Shown piece after piece: positions 2,037 through 56,884 of a stretch of DNA of 64,000 nt. This DNA comes from a virus. Under the pieces are notes generated by a model. That model was not told where the DNA came from. It was given only the letters and a program-made list of their open reading frames with translations, and did not search any database. Position 1 is the stretch's first letter, and every line of letters starts with the position of its first letter. Both the position numbers and the translations under genes were made by a program. The stretch is taken from positions 56,600 through 120,599 of the IMG/VR virus record IMGVR_UViG_3300042545_001134. One strand, given 5' to 3'.

Positions 2037-2058
2037 ACCCCCCGATTTTGTTTGGCAA
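2031..2058 (+). repeat. Intergenic element: short hairpin (GTC-tgta-GAC) + GATTTTGTTTGGCAAG
   Basis: 15-nt core at 2044-2058, 26 nt upstream of the ORF 2084 start. Confidence 0.55.
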
Positions 2059-2083
2059 GAAATATTAATTTAAATAAATCCAT

Positions 2084-2521
2084 ATGGAACCGAATTTAAT
2101 TATCAAACCATCCCAATGGTTAAACCTTGGGTGGTACGCATTAACAGTGGGAGGATTATACATCCATGAGTACTTGGGGTTATTCTTCTTAGTAATCCTG
2201 ATTTATAAAATCTTGGACATCTACTGTTGGAGTTACAGGTTCTACGACGATATCATTGTGGAGAAGAGAGGAATCCTGAATGTGACCCAAGAAGAGGTTC
2301 ATTACTTCAGAATCAAATCCATGATGGTGGAGGAACCATTCTTCCAACGTTTATTGGAACTGTCGACCATCAACATGTCTACATCTGAACATCTCAAACA
2401 GAACTTCGTTCTACATGGTATTTTAAAGGCAGAGGAAACTAAAGAATACCTTGCGAAGATGACCAAGACTAAGAGACGTAGTAATGGAATCCGCGAGATG
2501 GATATCATCAACGGGTACTAA
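2084..2521 (+). CDS. Membrane protein with bacterial PH-like (bPH_2/YdbT-like) domain
   Basis: Two N-terminal hydrophobic helices, then RGILNVTQEEVHYFRIKSMMVEEPFFQRLLELSTINMSTSE. This resembles the bPH_2 family pattern. Confidence 0.45.
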   Translation: MEPNLIIKPSQWLNLGWYALTVGGLYIHEYLGLFFLVILIYKILDIYCWSYRFYDDIIVEKRGILNVTQEEVHYFRIKSMMVEEPFFQRLLELSTINMSTSEHLKQNFVLHGILKAEETKEYLAKMTKTKRRSNGIREMDIINGY

Positions 2522-2530
2522 CCCTGATGG

Positions 2531-2561
2531 ACCTGAAGACAGGTGACGATTTTGTTTGGCA
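2531..2561 (+). repeat. Intergenic element: hairpin ACCTG-aaga-CAGGT + GATTTTGTTTGGCAGG
   Basis: 5-bp perfect stem followed by the conserved U-rich core. This is the first of three tandem copies. Confidence 0.6.
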
Positions 2562-2580
2562 GGGATTACCGTCCGACGGG

Positions 2581-2608
2581 ACCTGAGATGGTCGATTTTG
2601 TTTGGCAA
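2581..2608 (+). repeat. Intergenic element: hairpin GACC-tgagat-GGTC + GATTTTGTTTGGCAAGG
   Basis: Stem-loop then conserved core. This is the second tandem copy. Confidence 0.6.
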
Positions 2609-2620
2609 GGGTTAACCTTC

Positions 2621-2657
2621 CTCAGGACGACCCCGGAATCAGGATTTTGTTTGGCAA
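2621..2657 (+). repeat. Intergenic element: GC-rich segment + GATTTTGTTTGGCAAT
   Basis: Third tandem copy, about 80 nt upstream of ORF 2739. Confidence 0.55.
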
Positions 2658-2738
2658 TAGTTTTTTGAAATATTTTGTAACGGGATTTGGAAATGTCAGA
2701 TTTATTGGTTATATTTTATATATAAAACTGATAATATT

Positions 2739-2924
2739 ATGGCAAACAAAAAAATCACTCAGAGACAACCAGGTAAGGTAACTGCATACGAACCTGTGTC
2801 GCATCACATCTACCACGATGGTTATTCATATCGTGTACGTGTGATTAAGAACGGTACCCGTTACAGTCAGAATTTCTCTAGTAGAAAGAAGGCAATGGAT
2901 TTCCGCAAGTCATTGTTATCTTAA
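2739..2924 (+). CDS. Small basic hypothetical protein (61 aa)
   Basis: ORF-track frame followed by a strong terminator hairpin. Confidence 0.45.
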   Translation: MANKKITQRQPGKVTAYEPVSHHIYHDGYSYRVRVIKNGTRYSQNFSSRKKAMDFRKSLLS

Positions 2925-2973
2925 TAGGATAACTTTACGTGGGTTCTCCATTCCACAATGGGGGACCACTAGA

Positions 2974-2999
2974 CCCGTGGTAACCCCACGGGTTTTTTT
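2974..2999 (+). terminator. Rho-independent terminator
   Basis: Hairpin CCCGTGG-taacc-CCACGGG followed by TTTTTTT. Confidence 0.7.
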
Positions 3000-3016
3000 C
3001 GTTACCACAGAAACCT

Positions 3017-3050
3017 GACTCAGGATGGTATCCTGGATTTTGTTTGGCAA
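3017..3050 (+). repeat. Intergenic element: hairpin CAGGAT-ggt-ATCCTG + GATTTTGTTTGGCAAGG
   Basis: 6-bp stem immediately 5' of the conserved core. Confidence 0.6.
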
Positions 3051-3060
3051 GGACACCCGT

Positions 3061-3098
3061 GTTGTAACATCTAACACTGTCGATTTTGTTTGGCAAGG
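3061..3098 (+). repeat. Intergenic element: hairpin GTGTT...AACAC + GATTTTGTTTGGCAAGG, abutting the ATG at 3099
   Basis: Conserved core at 3082-3096. The gene start (atgtgtatgaca) follows directly. Confidence 0.6.
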
Positions 3099-3866
3099 AT
3101 GTGTATGACAGAACTATTTATATGTATGACACAGAAACTAATAAACCTACTGAATGAGGACGATACTCAAAAGGTAGAACAAATGATACAAGACTTCGAG
3201 GGGTACAACCAAAATGGTATCGAGGTGGTTATGGTGAAGAAAGGTGATAGTGGTGGGGCCATAATGATGATACGGATAACATCCCCAACAATAACAGATG
3301 ATATAGTAAACGAAAAGTTAGAGGTCATCTCAAAGGACTTACAGTCCAAAGGGTATGGTGACCTAATTTTACTTTTCGTAGTTAGTGCCGTATACTATAC
3401 ACCTGAAGGTGTGGATTTAAAAATCGATGTGATGAACTATCAACCACACCAAATCAAAAATAACCTGAGATATGAGTACCCTTCAATTCAGGATATACTA
3501 ATGGGTAATGTGGACTTTACTATACAATCCAATGTAATACCTACGGTTAATCAGGACACCGCAGAGTGGATTCGTATTAAGAAGAAGAGATGTATGACAG
3601 TATATCAGGTACTCCAAAAAGGTTCAGTTAATGGTGTGTCATACACACTAGGTCCCATCCATGGGATGAGTGAGGTGGAACCTACGGTTACTCCGAACTA
3701 TAAAAAGACCTTACAGAGGGACACCATTAATCAACTTCTGTTATCCGTCGAATTAAACGTCCGTATTACAGAGGTCTCCGACCTCAATAGAAAGGACGAA
3801 GTCTCATACGGTATCAAAGAGAAGTTCGAAAAGTTTGGTGTCAACGTGGAAGTCATGGTGAACTAA
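3090..3866 (+). CDS. Hypothetical protein (~255 aa)
   Basis: ORF-track frame. The track start at 3090 is TTG inside the repeat core, so the ATG at 3099 is the more likely start. Confidence 0.5.
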   Translation: MARMCMTELFICMTQKLINLLNEDDTQKVEQMIQDFEGYNQNGIEVVMVKKGDSGGAIMMIRITSPTITDDIVNEKLEVISKDLQSKGYGDLILLFVVSAVYYTPEGVDLKIDVMNYQPHQIKNNLRYEYPSIQDILMGNVDFTIQSNVIPTVNQDTAEWIRIKKKRCMTVYQVLQKGSVNGVSYTLGPIHGMSEVEPTVTPNYKKTLQRDTINQLLLSVELNVRITEVSDLNRKDEVSYGIKEKFEKFGVNVEVMVN

Positions 3867-3918: not shown

Positions 3919-4153
3919 ATTTTAGGACCGATATAACGATATCCATAGTATACATTTCCAGGAAATTTAAATTTATGTCCTTACTTCACACAAGGTACAA
4001 TCCCAGGGTAAATGTCACTGAGTGGTAAAAAGTGGGGGAAAGTGGCATTGTAATACGCCCAGCCCAAAAACCGGTCATTTTGACCTGACAAAAGTAGGGG
4101 ATTTTCGTTACGACAAAAAATGTCTGGATAGTAGGGTTAAAAACGGGGTTTTT

Positions 4154-4498
4154 TTAGGGGTTATTTTTAGAATCATAAACCAATGGTTCCTCACATACCG
4201 GACACTCATCCAGTACAATCATATTGTTCCTGCGGAACGACCAACGTTCCACGGTAGGTAATTCATCTACTGTAAGAACCGTATAACCATCCATACATTT
4301 TACTTCACCATCTATATCATAGTACCTACCTTTATACCTTGTTACTATATGGTTTTTTCTTTGAGAAATATATGGGGTACAATCTTTATACATCTTCTTT
4401 AGTAGGATATGAAACCTATAACATCCTCCTTCGGTATAGATGTATCTTATGTACCCATCTGTATTTCTCAGTTCATCTATGAATGTTAGTATATTCAT
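4154..4498 (-). CDS. Hypothetical Cys-containing protein (114 aa)
   Basis: ORF-track frame with C-terminal CPVCEEP, a possible zinc-ribbon half-site. Confidence 0.4.
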   Translation of the reverse strand: MNILTFIDELRNTDGYIRYIYTEGGCYRFHILLKKMYKDCTPYISQRKNHIVTRYKGRYYDIDGEVKCMDGYTVLTVDELPTVERWSFRRNNMIVLDECPVCEEPLVYDSKNNP

Positions 4499-4519
4499 TT
4501 TATACTTTATGGTATTATA

Positions 4520-4804
4520 CTATATGGTATTATTGGAATCAACTATCCTTCTATACAATTCATGTTGTAATCTATAAGTCTCTAATCTTTGTTGTTCTTC
4601 ATTAATAGTTATGGTATTATTCTCAATTGGATTGTGTCTTCTTCTATATCGTTCATGACGTATTCTATAACTTTCTTCTTCTGCCTCTATACCATACCTT
4701 AACGTATCTCTTATTCTTCTTCTTACAGATTCTTCTAATTCATTGGGATATACTTCTATTATACTATTATCAATATATCCCCTGCCAAGTTTAAAATTGT
4801 TCAT
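4520..4804 (-). CDS. Small hypothetical protein, MNNFKLGRGY family (94 aa)
   Basis: Shares its N-terminus MNNFKLGRGY and ~37 bp of start-region DNA with the next ORF. Confidence 0.45.
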   Translation of the reverse strand: MNNFKLGRGYIDNSIIEVYPNELEESVRRRIRDTLRYGIEAEEESYRIRHERYRRRHNPIENNTITINEEQQRLETYRLQHELYRRIVDSNNTI

Positions 4805-4813
4805 ATATATGGT

Positions 4814-5116
4814 TTAAGACATAAGACTGTCTATTATTTTATCCTGTAATTCAAATATACTATCCATGTTGATATTATCATAATTCAATTCCTCCATAAC
4901 GTATTCTGCCCAAACAATATAGTGGGTAAACGTGAGATTATCCTTTATTGATACAATATCCGTGGCAACCCTATTAAACCCCTCATATTTTATCTCAATA
5001 CGGATTGTGGTTTCATCTATATGATATAGTATTATCGATAACCCATATTGGGATATGATTTTGGTATTATATCCCCTGCCAAGTTTAAAGTTGTTCATAT
5101 ATATGGATTTCTTCAA
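4814..5116 (-). CDS. Small hypothetical protein, MNNFKLGRGY family (100 aa)
   Basis: Tandem paralogue of 4520-4804. The duplicated start region is tatcccctgccaagtttaaa(a/g)ttgttcatatatatgg. Confidence 0.45.
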   Translation of the reverse strand: MKKSIYMNNFKLGRGYNTKIISQYGLSIILYHIDETTIRIEIKYEGFNRVATDIVSIKDNLTFTHYIVWAEYVMEELNYDNINMDSIFELQDKIIDSLMS

Positions 5117-5195
5117 TTTATAGGTTTTAACCCCCTCGATTTTATATCTACACCATAAACAACGTAGAGATACTTATATTATAAAAGTAATCACA

Positions 5196-5273
5196 GTTGT
5201 ATATACCTTTCAAATTGTGATTATAAACAACTGCAGAACAAATATCAACCTGTGTAGAACAGTTGTATACACC
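5196..5273 (-). CRISPR. Solo repeat-spacer unit: degenerate 36-nt repeat, 30-nt spacer, 12-nt partial repeat fused to scaffold A
   Basis: 5196-5231 gttgtatatacctttcaaattgtgattataaacaac vs array consensus gttgtatacacctttcaaataagaggtatttacaac. Spacer is 5232-5261. 5262-5273 gttgtatacacc is the repeat 5' end. Confidence 0.7.
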
Positions 5274-5390
5274 AATAAAAAGTATTTAGTGAGTGGGTTA
5301 TTACCCCGAGATTATCTCCTCCTGTTTATTCAGGGAATCACTATGGGTTGTACAACCAACCCCATCACTTGTGGTGATGAAAATATCTTG
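5274..5390 (-). ncRNA. Conserved omega-RNA/tracrRNA-like scaffold, copy A, overlapping the 3' end of the nuclease CDS
   Basis: About 85% identical to 7151-7273 in its conserved blocks. Contains hairpins CCTG-tttatt-CAGG and GGGTTG-tacaac-CAACCC, the latter with a compensatory change in copy B. The strand is inferred. Confidence 0.65.
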
Positions 5391-6728
5391 TTTTTTCTGT
5401 AGACCTTTTAATAGTCTACCTTTCTTACTCTTACCTTTTACTTCGTTACCTTCAGCGTAAGTTATATTATATGCCCCAACAATATCGGCATCCTTTAGTT
5501 TACCGTAATCGTCACACTCAATGTTAATACAGGTGAATTTGGTTTTATCCTTATCCTTTCTATTCTCCTTATCCACATTCTTACAAGTTGGACATGTAAT
5601 AGATGTATCTTTTGGATTCACCCACAGGATTTGAATCCCCACCATCTTTGCTTTATATTCAATATCCGTTTGAAGTTGATAATATGCCCACGATTTTAAA
5701 AACAAATCTTTAGTGTTTGTGGTTATACCAGTTAAGTCCTCCATCTTAATAATACCCACATTGTATTGTTGGGCAATATCAATAACATCCCTACTGATAT
5801 CGTGATTCATTAACACGGACCAATTGTGTTCCTTTTCCTTTAATCTTTCCATTCCCAACATCTTTCTTGTTCTTCCATGTCCACCCTTGGCAAACTTCAT
5901 GGATTGTTGAAGTGCTCTTCGTATCTTATAGAACTTCATTCTCTCAGTTTGAATCTTTTCACCGATTGAAATCTGTGATGGTTGATGTTTCTCCCCGTCA
6001 ATGTATATTGATACTGGTCTGTTTATACCCAAATCAATTCCCATTACCTTATCAGGAATCATATCCTTTGATTTTGTATCAGGTACTGTACATGTTAATA
6101 ATAAAATAAAATCTTCATCCTTAATTTGAATAGAACTGGTGTTCATTTTGTATTCACCATTCAATATTCTATTGACAATTTTTTCATTACCACTTCTATC
6201 CCTTCCGTAATGTAATTTGAATTTAATTCCTTTGTGAATACTTCTCTCTGATGACGATAATGGTAAGTTAAAAACATAATCCTCCCCTTCTTTACTCACC
6301 ACAGGTTCTTTATTTACCGTACCTTTAAATGGTATTGTTAATGATGTTTTTCTAAATGATGGTATTGACATCTTTCCTTGTAAAATATCATAAAAACTCT
6401 CATCAATAGTTTTATATATCTTTTGACAAAACGACGATTTTATGTTCGATGATATGATGGTATTTTTCTTCATTAAGTTATAACCCATATTCTCCACCAT
6501 CGCCCCGTATTTTTCCTTGAAAATCTCTTTTGATTTAACTTTAGTAATATTAGTTGAATTTTTTATCTCATCCAACTCGTACTGGTTACAAACAGTTAAC
6601 CTAATAACTTCGTTTCCAATTTGAACCAAGTCAGATGCAATTCTTTTTACGTAATTGTACGATGCAGTTCTGTCCTTGCTGGTTTCACCAACCGCAATCA
6701 ATTTGATTTTTCTTGTGATTATTGACAT
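5301..6728 (-). CDS. TnpB/Cas12-like RNA-guided RuvC endonuclease (475 aa)
   Basis: RuvC-I GIDLGINRP, RuvC-II IIKMEDLTG, YKAKMVGIQILWVNPKDTSITCPTC..CINIEC zinc finger, RuvC-III DADIVGAYNI. This is the canonical TnpB/type V order. Confidence 0.85.
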   Translation of the reverse strand: MSIITRKIKLIAVGETSKDRTASYNYVKRIASDLVQIGNEVIRLTVCNQYELDEIKNSTNITKVKSKEIFKEKYGAMVENMGYNLMKKNTIISSNIKSSFCQKIYKTIDESFYDILQGKMSIPSFRKTSLTIPFKGTVNKEPVVSKEGEDYVFNLPLSSSERSIHKGIKFKLHYGRDRSGNEKIVNRILNGEYKMNTSSIQIKDEDFILLLTCTVPDTKSKDMIPDKVMGIDLGINRPVSIYIDGEKHQPSQISIGEKIQTERMKFYKIRRALQQSMKFAKGGHGRTRKMLGMERLKEKEHNWSVLMNHDISRDVIDIAQQYNVGIIKMEDLTGITTNTKDLFLKSWAYYQLQTDIEYKAKMVGIQILWVNPKDTSITCPTCKNVDKENRKDKDKTKFTCINIECDDYGKLKDADIVGAYNITYAEGNEVKGKSKKGRLLKGLQKKQDIFITTSDGVGCTTHSDSLNKQEEIISG

Positions 6729-6753
6729 ATCATGTTCTATTTTATGTTCATCG

Positions 6754-7093
6754 TTATATTAAAAACTTCAAGTAAGAGGTATTTACAACATAAATCCCAT
6801 TAGTTCGTATGGGTTCGTAGTTGTATACACCTTTCAAATAAGAGGTATTTACAACGTACTTGATGACCTGCAACAGGTCCATCAGTTGTATACACCTTTC
6901 AAATAAGAGAAACCCAAAGTACATGTTGTATACACCTTTCAAATAAGAGGTATTTACAACGTTTTCTCTTTCCCATGAGGTGCATCACCTGTTGTATACA
7001 CCTTTCAAATAAGAGGCATTTACAACTATTAACGGATGTACCAAAAATTAACATATAGTTGTATACACCTTTCAAATAAGAGGCATTTACAAC
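6754..7093 (-). CRISPR. CRISPR-like array of 36-bp repeats and 29-31-bp spacers
   Basis: Repeat GTTGTATACACCTTTCAAATAAGAGG(T/C)ATTTACAAC at 6820, 6925, 6991, 7058. Truncated copy at 6885-6910 and degenerate copy at 6754-6789. Spacers are unique. Array lies 25 nt upstream of the nuclease start codon. Confidence 0.85.
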
Positions 7094-7126
7094 ATGGTTA
7101 ACCCCATCTTATTATGAATCAACATA

Positions 7127-7273
7127 TTGTGAATGATTCCCTTATTAAAAAATAAAAGGTATTTAGTGAGTGAGAAGTTAATCTCCAGAAAAATTCCATC
7201 CTGTTTATTCAGGATTCACTATGGGCTGTACAACCAGCCCCACCAAAGTTTTACCTCTGATGAAAATATATTG
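7127..7273 (-). ncRNA. Conserved omega-RNA/tracrRNA-like scaffold, copy B, with a degenerate repeat at its array-proximal end
   Basis: Blocks AATAAAAGGTATTTAGTGAGTG and CCTGTTTATTCAGG..TCACTATGGGCTGTACAACCAGCCCCA..TGATGAAAATAT shared with copy A. An AT-rich promoter-like region follows at 7274-7340. Confidence 0.65.
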
Positions 7274-7465
7274 AAGTTTCCAATATTTCAAAGAACAATA
7301 CAAAGATACGTGTATTTTTTAGATATCCAAATTTTTTTTTAAAAATATTTTTTTATTCATCATCCTCCAACGAATCACTGTATGTGGGTTTATCCTTTGG
7401 GACATAGTCCTCATCACAATTATCAATATGGTCCTCGTCGTTCATAATAGATTTATTTTAAATAA

Positions 7466-7761
7466 CACCCTGATTTATCCAACTTACAGGTGTCGTGGCT
7501 GTCCCCGTTACCGGGTTAGAAATAGACTTTTGGATAGATAGTCAATCTAAATAGAGCCTTTCCCTATCAGAAGTTCCATATGGTTATCACACCACTTCTC
7601 ATCGTATTGGACATACTATCCGGTGATTAACCGAATCGCGTAGTCAGGACAGGAATCGAACCTATAACCAGTTTTCTAAGCCCTACGTGCAGGATTTTCA
7701 CTGCCTCGTACTGGTGTCTAATCGAGCATACACAGCGTTTAACCAATTCCGCCACCTGACT
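7466..7761. repeat. Segmental duplication, copy 1 (tRNA-like gene plus ~170 nt flank)
   Basis: 7580-7761 is near-identical to 9325-9506. 7466-7580 is about 70% similar to 9205-9325. Confidence 0.7.
7641..7761 (-). tRNA. tRNA-like element, atypically long (121 nt)
   Basis: Minus strand reads AGTCAGG..GGCG-GAATTGGTTAAA-CGCT (D-arm with GG)..ATAGG-TTCGATT-CCTGT (T-arm)..CCTGACT-A. The anticodon arm is not canonical by eye. Confidence 0.45.
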
Positions 7762-7949
7762 ATTAGCGTTCTATTAAAAATGGAAGTTATTGCGCCTATA
7801 CCATTTCGTTGATACCACCAATATGGCGTTCATTTTATTCCATTGTTCAAGTTTTGTGAACATTTTCAAATATAGATTTTTATTCCATCATTGCGCCTAT
7901 TTTTCTTGCTTTGCGCCTATTTTTTCCACCATAAGGCTAAAATTAGAAA

Positions 7950-8189
7950 TTATTTTCCAAATGTTTCGTTGTAGTATTGTTGAGAGCCAATTACATATTC
8001 ATCTGAAATGCCAAATTTGTAAGCATTCATTATCTCCTGCTTGTGCATTTCTTTGGCTTCGTCAACATCCACTAAAAAATTATCTATCATTGTTGTTCTA
8101 ACAATTCCATCTGGTTCAGATTCTATTATTAAAATTCTTCGTTTCAATTCAGATATTAACCATTCTATACTGCTTTTTTGTTTTTCCAT
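7950..8189 (-). CDS. Small hypothetical protein (79 aa), YYNETFGK-tail family
   Basis: C-terminus YYNETFGK shared with 8326-8544. Conserved upstream motif. Confidence 0.45.
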   Translation of the reverse strand: MEKQKSSIEWLISELKRRILIIESEPDGIVRTTMIDNFLVDVDEAKEMHKQEIMNAYKFGISDEYVIGSQQYYNETFGK

Positions 8190-8325
8190 TTTATTTGTTG
8201 TTTAAATGTTTTCTATTTCTTTTTTAATTCTTCATAAATACCACCTAAAATAATCATTATGATTAGTTGTATAAATGTAGTTACCCAATAATAAGCGTGT
8301 TCCATAAGTTTTTTTGTTATTTAAG

Positions 8326-8544
8326 TTATTTTCCAAATGTTTCGTTGTAGTATTTTTCTGCTGTTTCGTATGGCTTATCTCTAAAATGCCACGATTGATT
8401 ATAGCAATTGATGATTTGTTGCTTCTCCATTTCTTTGGCTTGTAAAAGAATATCTTTATACATTTTCCTTAATTCTTCTGAATCAAAAGATACTAATCCT
8501 AATAATTTTAATTCAATAAATCTTACTGCTGTTTGTTTTTTCAT
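8326..8544 (-). CDS. Small hypothetical protein (72 aa), YYNETFGK-tail family
   Basis: Paralogue of 7950-8189. Confidence 0.45.
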   Translation of the reverse strand: MKKQTAVRFIELKLLGLVSFDSEELRKMYKDILLQAKEMEKQQIINCYNQSWHFRDKPYETAEKYYNETFGK

Positions 8545-8933
8545 TTTGTTTGTTGTTTAAGTTTTACAATCTCAATCAGTTTTTTAATACACTCAAGCTC
8601 TGCTTCTTTATAAGTACCATTAAATTTTAAAGGTTCAGTTCCACATAGTCTATTCCATTTATCATTAATAATTAGATAAGAAAACTCTTGAGTACCAACT
8701 TCAATTAATCCTGTTAATCTATATTCTTCTCTAAACCATCTAAATACTTGTTGGTAAATTGGGGCTTTAATAAGATTCTTTTCTAATAAATTAGAATCAA
8801 ACATTTGTATTAGTATTTCACCAGTTGGCTCTTCCCATTCGGTAACAATACAATATCTACCAAAACAAGGTTCATCAAATCCTAATTCTTTTAAAGCTAA
8901 TGCTTCTTGGTATGGCATAAATTCTTTTTCCAT
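8541..8933 (-). CDS. Hypothetical protein (130 aa)
   Basis: ORF-track frame. Shares the same conserved upstream sequence as the two preceding genes. Confidence 0.45.
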   Translation of the reverse strand: MEKEFMPYQEALALKELGFDEPCFGRYCIVTEWEEPTGEILIQMFDSNLLEKNLIKAPIYQQVFRWFREEYRLTGLIEVGTQEFSYLIINDKWNRLCGTEPLKFNGTYKEAELECIKKLIEIVKLKQQTK

Positions 8934-9122
8934 TTTGTTTGTTGTTTAAGTTATATAATTTGTTAAATGTTTTTTTGGTGCTTGTTAAATGTTTGTATAA
9001 ATTTTTAGTAACGTTTCATGCACTTTGTCCAGTTAATTCATTAAAAGACTGGACATTACACGCCTTTAAATGCTTAAGCCTATTGGCTTTTGTTAATTGT
9101 ACCTATGGTACTTTGTTAATTG

Positions 9123-10584: not shown

Positions 10585-10717
10585 GGCACAAATATAATAG
10601 GTTATTTAGAATATTCCAAATTATTCTTCAATGTTTTTTGATTTGAACCATAGGAGTATAACCCCCACGATTCCGTAGACAATTAAAAATGTCAATATGT
10701 GTTCAACGATTATCATA

Positions 10718-55786: not shown

Positions 55787-56884
55787 ATGGAGTACGATTA
55801 TCTAATAGTTGGTGCCGGTTTCTTCGGTTCCATATGTGCCCACGAATTAACTAAGTCAGGTAAAAAAGTTTTAGTTATTGATTCAAGAGAACACATCGGT
55901 GGCAATTGTTACACCGAGAATAAAGATGGTATCAATGTTCAAGTATACGGTGCACACATCTTCCACACATCAAACAAAGAAGTGTGGGATTGGATTAACC
56001 AATTCGCTGAGTTTAACAACTATAGACACCATGTGATTGCCAACTACAAAGAAGAATTATATTCACTTCCTTTTAGTATGTGGACATTCAATAAACTGTG
56101 GGGAGTTAAGACACCTCAACAGGCGAAAGATATGATTGCAGAACAATCAAATGATATTGAAGAACCGAGCAACTTAGAAGAACAGGCAATCAAACTTGTA
56201 GGTAAGGATGTTTATGAAAAACTCATTAAGGGTTATACTCATAAACAATGGATGAAAGACCCCAAGGAATTACCAAAGGAAATCATTAAGAGGTTACCAG
56301 TTCGTTTTACCTATGACAACAATTATTTCTTTGACAAATATCAAGGTATCCCAATTGGTGGTTACACTCAGATTTTTGAAAAGTTATTAGAGGGAGTTGA
56401 GGTTAGATTGGGTGTGGATTATTTTAAAGGTAGTTTACCTAAACATAACAAAGTAATATTCACAGGACCAATCGATAAGTTCTTCGGTTACAAGTACGGT
56501 AAGTTAGAATACAAAACAGTTAGTTTCGAACACCAGTATTATAGTTCACCAAACCTTCAGGGTGTCCCTGTAATGAACTATACTGATGTGGATGTACCAT
56601 TCACTCGTATCATTGAACATAAACACTTTGAGGGTTTAGAAACGAATGGCTCGTGGATTACATATGAATACCCACAAGAGTATGTGGCAGATAAAACTGA
56701 CCCATATTATCCTGTGAACGATAAAGAGAACAATGAAATGTTTTCAAAATATAAAGAAGAGGCGGAGAAAGTTAAGGATTGTGTATTGTTTGGTGGAAGA
56801 CTTGGTGAATACAAATACTATGACATGCATCAGGTTGTCGAATCAGCACTAAACTTTATTAAAAAGGAAATCGATGGAAATTAG
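55787..56884 (+). CDS. glf: UDP-galactopyranose mutase
   Basis: YDYLIVGAGFFGS..IGGNCYTE..YGAHIFHTSNKEVWDW..LPFSMWTF..IKRLPVRFTYDNNYF..IIEHKHFE..YYPVND..GRLGEYKYYDMHQVV tracks E. coli Glf end to end. Confidence 0.85.
   Translation: MEYDYLIVGAGFFGSICAHELTKSGKKVLVIDSREHIGGNCYTENKDGINVQVYGAHIFHTSNKEVWDWINQFAEFNNYRHHVIANYKEELYSLPFSMWTFNKLWGVKTPQQAKDMIAEQSNDIEEPSNLEEQAIKLVGKDVYEKLIKGYTHKQWMKDPKELPKEIIKRLPVRFTYDNNYFFDKYQGIPIGGYTQIFEKLLEGVEVRLGVDYFKGSLPKHNKVIFTGPIDKFFGYKYGKLEYKTVSFEHQYYSSPNLQGVPVMNYTDVDVPFTRIIEHKHFEGLETNGSWITYEYPQEYVADKTDPYYPVNDKENNEMFSKYKEEAEKVKDCVLFGGRLGEYKYYDMHQVVESALNFIKKEIDGN

Follow-up and report, generated by a model that had tools for sequence, protein, structure and literature searches.

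Two tracrRNA-like scaffolds flank a Cas12f-like nuclease gene in a probable phage-borne type V-F1 CRISPR operon

The stretch of viral DNA analysed here (64 000 nucleotides; positions 56,600 to 120,599 of the IMG/VR record IMGVR_UViG_3300042545_001134, hereafter the window) carries between 7340 and 5120 a locus built around the gene of a Cas12f-like nuclease. In minus-strand order the locus consists of an AT-rich stretch, an RNA scaffold (scaffold B), the remnant of an arm, a short segment termed S0, a CRISPR array, the nuclease gene, a second scaffold (scaffold A) and a mini-array (Table 1). All coordinates refer to the plus strand of the window and sequences are quoted in the minus-strand reading; the related loci with which the window was compared are designated by L-numbers (L002, L007, L099, L100, L179 etc.). 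The locus is probably a phage-borne CRISPR operon of type V-F1 (Cas12f-like) on the minus strand, in which the scaffold would be a tracrRNA (trans-activating CRISPR RNA) that docks twice with the handle of the repeat.

Table 1. Features of the locus in the window (plus-strand coordinates)
Feature	Position	Strand	Details
Predicted promoter, Bacteroidota-type	7301-7331	-	-33 element TTTG (7331-7328), 19-nt spacer, -7 element TATCTTTG (7308-7301)
Scaffold B, tracrRNA-like, ~130 nt	7154-7287	-	Covariance model R1, 130.9 bits; fold -43 kcal/mol, z = -5.0
Decayed cis arm of scaffold B	7126-7153	-	AUUUUUUAAUAAGGGAAUCAUUCACAAU; ends CACAAT; relatives have a loop and AAAGGUAUAUACAAC there
S0, invariant 32-nt 'fossil guide' or leader	7094-7125	-	ATGTTGATTCATAATAAGATGGGGTTAACCAT; from strain comparison
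CRISPR array, repeat family D1	6754-7093	-	Four full 36-nt repeats, one 5'-truncated, one degenerate terminal
Array repeats	7058-7093, 6991-7026, 6925-6960, 6885-6909, 6820-6855, 6754-6789	-	6885-6909 5'-truncated; 6754-6789 degenerate terminal
Array spacers (five)	7027-7057, 6961-6990, 6910-6924, 6856-6884, 6790-6819	-	6910-6924 is 15 nt long
Cas12f-like nuclease gene (type V-F1, former V-U3)	5301-6728	-	475 amino acids; PADLOC profiles, nearest structures, invariant columns
Scaffold A, putative natural single-guide scaffold	5262-5404	-	R1, 125.9 bits for 5277-5404; overlaps the last 34 codons (442-475)
Downstream mini-array	5128-5261	-	Guide SA1, type-2 repeat, spacer SA2, degenerate terminal repeat
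Guide SA1	5232-5261	-	30 nt
Type-2 repeat	5196-5231	-	GUUGUUUAUAAUCACAAUUUGAAAGGUAUAUACAAC
Spacer SA2	5164-5195	-	32 nt
Degenerate terminal repeat of the mini-array	from 5163	-	Starts GUUGUUUAUGG

The nuclease gave full-length matches to the PADLOC profiles Cas12u3 (9.3e-82, residues 3-428) and Cas12f CAS-V-F (1.4e-80) and a match to the Pfam family Cas12f1-like_TNB (1.4e-14). The best solved structures were Al3Cas12f (9NZO, 1e-48) and AsCas12f (4e-36). The RuvC residues D232, E330 and D415 and the zinc-finger residues C379, C382, C400 and C405 were invariant in a 44-sequence alignment, and 558 metagenome homologues were found at E <= 1e-10. The protein measures 474-476 amino acids (aa) in the clade of the window, compared with ~447-459 aa in relatives. 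In this clade the open reading frame (ORF) reads through scaffold A (5301-5404 in the window) and is longer by ~25-30 residues, so that this segment is both coding sequence and structured RNA. One neighbouring ORF encodes a phage YunG-like protein; no transposase (TnpA), serine recombinase, sigma factor or helix-turn-helix (HTH) gene was found among the ten neighbouring ORFs.

The structure of the scaffold was derived from 15 copies in eight loci, which yielded 19 consensus pairs, 12 of them with compensatory changes. The covariance model built from these copies (R1) gave 23 strong matches of 66-131 bits in the window and its relatives; weaker matches were consistently placed beside more distant Cas12f genes of gut metagenomes. 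Scaffold B comprises the P1 hairpin CAUCAGAG/CUUUGGUG, the P2 hairpin GGGCUG-GUUGUA-CAGCCC (loop at 7234-7229) and a three-way junction closed by GUGA/UCAC, followed by the motif CACUCAC and the anti-repeat TAAATACC (7165-7158). In scaffold A the P2 loop GUUGUA is located at 5356-5351 and the anti-repeat TAAATAC at 5288-5282, from where the loop UUUUUAUU leads into the cis arm GGUGUAUACAAC (5273-5262). Differences between scaffolds A and B are compensatory, for example GGGUUG/CAACCC versus GGGCUG/CAGCCC. A search of 4000-9000 against Rfam gave no match. The run of T residues after the anti-repeat of scaffold B was considered as an intrinsic terminator and ruled out, as no GC hairpin precedes it. 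Another weak R1 match (10589-10710, minus strand; 20.3 bits, E = 0.35) exactly fills an intergenic gap; it does not contain CACUCAC and is probably a chance match.

Both scaffold ends resemble the repeat. Its 5' half, TAAATACCTCTTATTT, agrees with the end of scaffold B at 15 of 16 positions (7150-7165) and with that of scaffold A at 13 of 16 (5273-5288), and scaffold A continues with an exact 12-nt copy of the repeat 3' end, GGTGTATACAAC (5262-5273). With up to three mismatches allowed, the 16-mer was found 11 times in the window (2.7 +/- 1.6 expected; 0 of 100 shuffles reached 11), the six repeats and both scaffold ends accounting for eight of these matches. When the repeat was aligned locally with the scaffold ends, scores of 31 and 27 were obtained; the background maximum over 12,592 windows was 24. 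The likeness of repeat and scaffold end, first pointed out in an initial annotation of the window, thus exceeds the background of the window by both measures. Since the repeat is self-complementary, likeness to its 5' arm is at the same time complementarity to its 3' arm, and the anti-repeat TAAATACC pairs with AAAGGTGTAT in the last 17 nt of the repeat. The similarity arises because the 5' arm (GUUGUA-A-AUACC) and the scaffold elements both complement the same conserved handle; the arm is a contiguous image of the P2 loop, the conserved junction A and the anti-repeat.

The pairings were analysed in 35 'virtual single-guide RNAs (sgRNAs)', among them three published sgRNAs. Each row combines the P2 hairpin with the 12 nt that follow CACUC and with the final 17 nt of the repeat, or cis arm, of its locus. 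The P2 stem was paired in 99% of the cells. For the pseudoknot between the P2 loop and the last six bases of the repeat the value was 97.6%, with the matched variants GUUGUA/UACAAC, GUUGUG/CACAAC, GUUGUU/AACAAC, GUUGGA/UCCAAC and AUUUUA/UAAAAC, and for the helix of the anti-repeat with the repeat 3' arm it was 90.4%, with double changes in seven of the eight pairs. None of 500 shuffles reached any of the observed measures, and sliding the partner by 1-3 columns reduced pairing to 33-54%. For the anti-repeat of scaffold B, duplex energies of -10.8 kcal/mol with the array handle and -4.4 kcal/mol with its own decayed arm were predicted.

The same register is found in the tested sgRNAs of Al3Cas12f, MG119-2 and MG119-3 (PMC13186708, supplementary file 3). 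These contain, in order, the P2 hairpin, the CACUC motif, the anti-repeat, an engineered GAAA linker and a handle ending in CCAAC or AAAAC, and the order in the scaffold is the same. The Al3Cas12f sgRNA reads ...GAGGGCGC-GUUGGA-GCGCCUUAG...ACACUCAAAAAAUUCACUUGA-GAAA-UCAAGUGAAUAUCCAAC-guide (PMC13186708); its counterpart in scaffold A reads ...GGGUUG-GUUGUA-CAACCCAUAG...CCACUCACUAAAUAC-UUUUUAUU-GGUGUAUACAAC-guide, the natural loop standing at the site of the engineered GAAA. The initial annotation had described the shared segment as not being an anti-repeat. This description has to be abandoned, as the segment, TAAATACC(UUU), pairs with the repeat 3' arm in the register of the tested sgRNAs and with the compensatory changes given above.

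The strand was assigned from the scaffolds. All 23 strong matches lie on the strand of the nuclease gene. G-U pairs are common in the scaffold helices (the base of P2 is a G-U pair in 13 of the 35 sequences), so only the gene strand fits, because the other strand would give C-A mismatches. Folding energy did not decide the strand of the repeat (-10.9 versus -10.2 kcal/mol), which was assigned from co-orientation and the G-U pairs. A generic scan for sigma-70 promoters and terminators gave nothing above chance; the promoter call was based instead on a Bacteroidota motif compared across loci. The motif TAnnTTTG is present at the same distance ahead of the scaffold in 14 related loci, mostly with TTTG ~19-21 nt upstream, and transcription is predicted to start near 7294. 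Ahead of the nuclease gene and of scaffold A in the window no comparable promoter motif was found, in the latter case because scaffold A sits within coding sequence. The simplest reading would be a single transcript that spans the whole operon and is presumably processed. The initial annotation had suggested that the minus strand is transcribed from the promoter through scaffold B, array, nuclease and scaffold A to the guide; this agrees with the strand of the 23 matches, the G-U pairs and the promoter motif. The polarity assumed there was also found, the terminal repeat next to the gene (3' end) being the degenerate one.

The repeat of the upstream array (type 1), GUUGUAAAUACCUCUUAUUUGAAAGGUGUAUACAAC, forms the extended hairpin that had been proposed for it (-10.9 kcal/mol, z = -3.7). 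The array contains, after the 15-nt spacer, a 5'-truncated repeat that is absent from the initial annotation. The gene-proximal repeat is degenerate, as stated there (71% identity to the reference), with the decay in its 3' half on the transcribed strand. Similarly, the degenerate repeat-like stretch reported beside scaffold B is where it was placed; its sequence resembles the repeat weakly and it was identified as a decayed cis arm mainly by position. Intact arms occupy that position in L100_B, L099, L007, L102 and L105; a MAFFT alignment of the scaffold ends was poor and served as a loose positional comparison. The spacer-like segment next to it (S0) is present, with a length of 32 nt. It is shared without change by L179/L180, whose nuclease is 95% identical, and is one indel off in L002 (nuclease 76% identical), and all array spacers differ; as S0 is unchanged where every array spacer has been replaced, it is not a fresh spacer. 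The D1 repeat itself recurs in L002 and L179 with wholly different spacers. In several arrays of relatives (L003:2829-2950, L004:2560-2925, L082:2880-2975 and 4440-4545) runs of handle-only units (AAGGTATATACAAC or ATAGTATATACAAC) were observed, with spacers of 13-26 nt, in which just the scaffold-pairing part of the repeat has been kept.

In place of the solo guide described previously, the mini-array downstream of scaffold A contains two spacers, which a type-2 repeat separates, and ends in a degenerate terminal repeat. This type-2 repeat is matched by those of the arrays in L007, L099, L181 and L105. The guide that follows scaffold A differs between the window and L179, which has a 95% identical nuclease at the same genomic site, and the guide position of scaffold A thus behaves as a spacer slot. 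In L179 the guide after scaffold A (TGAATAATTTGGTTGGCCAACACAGAGG, ~2140-2170) and a spacer of the upstream array (TGAACACTTTGATTGGCAAACACAGAGGA, ~3968-3995) are variants of one sequence; this may represent either two guides on variants of the same target or spacers moving between slots.

The nuclease also passed the general guided_TnpB model of NCBIfam (5e-43; 147.9 versus a cut-off of 100) and carries the PHROG label transposase, and scaffold A, like omega-RNAs, overlaps the 3' end of the gene and has a guide at its own 3' end. These features would be expected of a mobile TnpB element in which the gene and scaffold A form an OMEGA module of the IS200/IS605 type, with a guide for transposon homing and arrays that are incidental. 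We consider such an element extremely improbable here. No TnpA or serine recombinase gene is found nearby (ten ORFs; no search was aimed at insertion-sequence (IS) ends), the gene is present as a single copy in the window, the guide varies between strains at one genomic site and is followed by CRISPR repeats, and arrays accompany the gene across the family.

The following working of the system is proposed. The ~130-nt scaffold would be the tracrRNA, and the handle of the CRISPR RNA (crRNA) would be formed by the ~17 nt at the 3' end of each repeat (AAAGGUGUAUACAAC). The first docking contact would be made by the anti-repeat at the 3' end of the scaffold (UAAAUACCUUU) with AAAGGUGUAU, and the second, a pseudoknot, by the P2 loop GUUGUA with UACAAC, the last six bases of the repeat beside the guide. 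In scaffold A a short natural loop would join the anti-repeat to the handle and a 30-nt guide; scaffold A would then act as a natural single guide, and its product would be an omega-RNA-like single-guide RNA within the 3' end of the nuclease messenger RNA. In scaffold B decay of the cis handle would leave the anti-repeat free for the handles of the array on the same transcript. Because its anti-repeat and P2 loop are intact although its own arm has decayed, scaffold B probably serves the array in trans or, within the one transcript, in long-range cis. With its intact RuvC site the RNA-protein complex would cleave matching DNA, the targets presumably being competing phages or mobile elements.

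The array crRNAs could instead be self-contained hairpins, the 5' arm of the repeat giving the stem in cis; they would attach to the scaffold weakly or via the protein, and the scaffold anti-repeat would be unused for them. Self-pairing of the repeat is indeed stronger than pairing with the scaffold (-13.4 versus -10.8 kcal/mol, besides the z value of the hairpin), and the arm GUUGUA-A-AUACC copies both contact elements contiguously, including the conserved junction A. However, preservation of the anti-repeat and P2 loop in scaffold B beside a decayed arm implies use in trans, and in most relatives the same scaffold serves non-hairpin repeats. Furthermore, GUUGUA of the 5' arm paired to UACAAC would block the P2 pseudoknot, a pairing that covaries family-wide, and the 5' half of the repeat is dropped in the tested sgRNAs of relatives. 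Self-contained hairpins are therefore regarded as improbable.

Several observations weigh against a functional type V-F1 operon with docking as proposed. Self-pairing of the type-1 repeat, whether taken as the hairpin fold or as the duplex, competes with scaffold pairing, and one scaffold per transcript would have several spacers to load. The 35-row alignment was assembled by hand from motif-anchored segments, and in its trans rows each locus is represented by its commonest repeat, a choice that favours the register proposed. The nuclease missed the cut-off of the NCBIfam Cas12f2 model NF049972 (90.6 versus 450 bits); V-F1 is not excluded by missed Cas12f cut-offs of NCBIfam, since these 'exception' models cover narrow subgroups. 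No adaptation protein was found among the ten neighbouring ORFs, although spacers turn over. No target was found for any of the seven window spacers in GenBank phages, for three spacers searched as exact 20-mers and for one degenerate 28-mer of L179 in IMG/VR, or for any spacer in the window itself, and as no protospacer was found for the window spacers no protospacer-adjacent motif was derived. When 104 candidate spacers of relatives were compared with the window and all fetched loci, a single credible protospacer was obtained. It belongs to the first (cis) guide of L108 (4513-4542), which matches L175:2978-2999 exactly (22/22) within a distantly related TnpB-like gene on another contig; one RNA-guided element may here be targeting another.

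The empty target searches, the degenerate repeats, the truncated repeat with its 15-nt spacer, the invariant fossil guide and the handle-only mini-repeats of relatives would also fit a decaying relic, that is, a TnpB/Cas12f element, domesticated or dying, whose scaffolds and arrays have lost their function and retain residual similarities. The catalytic residues are, however, intact in 44 homologues, every helix is maintained by compensatory changes and the promoter is conserved. Spacers have been replaced completely between near-identical strains, and the family is widespread, as the number of homologues given above shows. A relic is accordingly judged highly improbable, and an operon of type V-F1 remains the preferred reading.

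The commonest layout in the family is gene, promoter, scaffold, terminal hairpin (anti-repeat, loop and AAAGGTATATACAAC), ~30-nt guide and an array of 36-nt repeats. Only the subclade of the window combines an additional unit of scaffold and array, upstream of the gene, with a downstream scaffold that lies inside the coding sequence. More distant relatives have the order promoter, tracrRNA with a free anti-repeat, 30-90 nt, array and gene, without a cis arm. In L105 two complete scaffold and array units (835-960 and 1340-1463) stand in tandem downstream of one nuclease gene. A duplication like that in L105 could be the source of the upstream unit in the clade of the window.

According to the initial annotation the array arose by iteration of the terminal hairpin of the scaffold, an idea put forward in general terms in 2023 (PNAS; PMC10691335). 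In this case hairpin and guide would have been duplicated serially, and the 5' half of the repeat would be a true copy of anti-repeat and loop. In most relatives the terminal arm of the scaffold does stand as 'repeat 0' in the register of the array, which begins after a guide of ~30 nt. The 15/16 match at scaffold B extends beyond the paired bases into the loop, the anti-repeat and the repeat 5' arm have an imperfection in common (A opposite A), and within genomes the cis arm and the array handles agree on a G/A variant (the window has GGUGUAU, L099 and L100 have GGUAUAU). On the other hand, the repeat starts with GUUGU, and in the scaffold this sequence does not adjoin the anti-repeat. Repeats of types 1 and 2 are equal in length (36 nt), can be aligned without gaps and have GUUGU and UUUGAAAGG in common, and type 1 looks like a substituted type 2; intermediate forms (GUAUCUACCCAC, GUGAGUACCCUC and GUAAAUACCAC) are present in the L100 array. 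The anti-repeat-like arm is variable: in 18 arrays the mean pairwise identity was 0.86 for the 3' 15 nt of the repeat versus 0.49 for the 5' arm. Stable extended hairpin repeats were found only in the upstream arrays of the window clade, L100 and L110, with at least two independent cases (the window clade and L110); the type-2 repeat, which is common in the family and stands downstream of scaffold A in the window, has no significant fold. Finally, the Cas12f systems among which the family is nested have a separate tracrRNA, so that the fusion could be secondary.

On this evidence direct descent of the array from the scaffold end is possible but rather doubtful. Gradual convergence of the 5' arm on complementarity is at least as likely as direct copying, and stepwise change of the arm is favoured by its variability, the few hairpin lineages, the equal length of the repeat types and the intermediates in L100. 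Copying or gene conversion of the scaffold end is possible in view of the match into the loop, the common A-opposite-A imperfection and the agreement of cis arm and array handles within genomes, and the present data do not fix the direction of change between the fused and split forms. A more far-reaching reading, which we regard as quite unlikely, is that two 'split' states of the guide RNA exist side by side and are both in use, fused in scaffold A and free in scaffold B with its fossil handle and guide. The contiguous copy of P2 loop, junction A and anti-repeat in the hairpin repeats would then be an intramolecular switch or a substitute for tracrRNA pairing, and spacers would be exchanged without Cas1-Cas2 by recombination via the shared handle.

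The carrier is probably a phage of a Bacteroidota host, as judged from the promoter type and from one relative in a metagenome-assembled genome of Flavobacteriaceae. Other ORFs of the window match phage families and several relatives lie on IMG/VR viral contigs; a megablast search of 24 kb of the window against GenBank phages gave no match.

Further features were observed elsewhere in the window. Six copies of a ~23-nt motif, (C)GATTTTGTTTGGCAAGG (repeat family D3), are located in or near short intergenic stretches at 2040-3100 and may be a phage regulatory or promoter element. A 42-nt repeat (4774-4815 and 5068-5109, 95% identical) spans the beginnings of two small ORFs that lie side by side immediately downstream of the mini-array; the same start sequence comes after the locus in L179, and the two ORFs are paralogous neighbours. 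On the minus strand at 7640-7930 lie a tRNA-like T-arm sequence, GGTTCGATTCCTGTCC, and two weak fragments of transfer-messenger RNA (tmRNA) in the right order (model positions 82-140 at 7925-7868 and 350-360 at 7662-7652), which scored far below the gathering score. ARAGORN found no tRNA or tmRNA in the window; the region may hold a phage gene for a tmRNA, or a tRNA-like gene, that has diverged strongly. Three tandem units of ~355-390 nt (7947-8960; families D4, D10 and D11) extend over the minus-strand ORFs 7950-8189, 8326-8544 and 8541-8933. These small ORFs gave no Pfam match, and the units look like paralogous small genes.

Several features that define type V-F are present in the locus: matching profiles, a small RuvC nuclease (400-700 aa) with the D/E/D residues and a zinc finger, and an adjacent array with strain-variable spacers. 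A tracrRNA with anti-repeat and pseudoknot is indicated computationally, by covariation and by the register of the tested sgRNAs. The closest characterized systems are Al3Cas12f and Cas12f-MG119 (PMC13186708) and AsCas12f, which belong to the same protein family at an identity of only ~30-35%. In Al3Cas12f and MG119, as in the window, the P2 loop pairs with the bases at the very end of the repeat, a CACUC motif is present, and the anti-repeat pairs with the 3' arm in the same register. They also have 36-nt repeats ending in CAAC, and the order tracrRNA, array and gene on one strand is found in their gut relatives. In contrast to these systems, the link between anti-repeat and handle is natural in the window, and there are two scaffolds, one fused and overlapping the coding sequence and the other free, its arm decayed. 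A phage carries the window locus, and the repeat of its upstream array is a full hairpin.

The omega-RNA, or right-element RNA (reRNA), of ISDra2 TnpB is a single long RNA that shares its strand with the nuclease gene, overlaps the 3' end of that gene and has a 3' guide with a pseudoknot beside it. Scaffold A resembles such omega-RNAs of IS200/IS605 elements in its layout, its guide and its overlap with the 3' end of a gene matching guided_TnpB. The locus differs from these elements in that neither a transposase (among the ten neighbouring ORFs, IS ends not having been the aim of any search) nor multiple copies were found, in its variable guide of ~30 nt leading into CRISPR repeats, and in its second scaffold with a promoter of its own.

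TranC systems combine compact nucleases of the TnpB lineage with CRISPR arrays, their single guide RNA being split into tracrRNA and crRNA, and some are reported to be phage-borne and without adaptation genes (Jin et al., Cell 2025, as cited by others). The window locus would encode both forms, with scaffold A fused and scaffold B free, and may use both. Its protein falls in V-F1 by profile. In the literature consulted no description of a fused and a split scaffold in one operon was found.

Natural fusion of the tracrRNA with half a repeat, giving a chimeric guide RNA, has been described for dCas12f-sigmaE of Bacteroidetes (PMC13472631) and for the sigma-TnpB clade (PMC10691335), including a locus of Sphingobacterium that has CRISPR arrays as well as full guide RNAs (PMC13472631 / PMC10691335). 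The window thus has in common with them a Cas12f lineage of Bacteroidota and such a natural fusion. Unlike dCas12f-sigmaE, which is C-terminally truncated, inactivated in RuvC and encoded in an operon with rpoE, the nuclease of the window has intact RuvC residues, and no sigma factor (rpoE) or HTH partner was found among its neighbours; its guides are ~30 nt rather than 14-16 nt long, its carrier is a phage, and its guide RNA heads an array with spacer turnover.

According to the steps proposed in the literature, type V arrays and tracrRNAs arose by a split of the TnpB omega-RNA and duplication of its 3' part gave arrays, with later re-fusion in some Cas12f systems (PMC10691335; PMC13472631; Jin et al., 2025, as cited by others). 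Both the origin of arrays from duplicated omega-RNA ends (PMC10691335) and the reverse path, re-fusion of the tracrRNA with half a repeat (PMC10691335, PMC13472631), had therefore been put forward, and the design principle itself was already known. What appears to be new in the present locus is the layout: an array headed by a natural single guide, a gene with a fused scaffold on one side and a split one on the other, overlap of a scaffold with coding sequence, and hairpin repeats that mimic both contacts, all in a phage. The phage family provides a dense natural series around one apparently active nuclease, from a fused scaffold with array through a decayed cis arm to a fully free tracrRNA, which makes the direction and the functional consequences of the guide-RNA split testable, and it supplies a compact branch of Cas12f (447-476 aa) with a short natural single-guide design.

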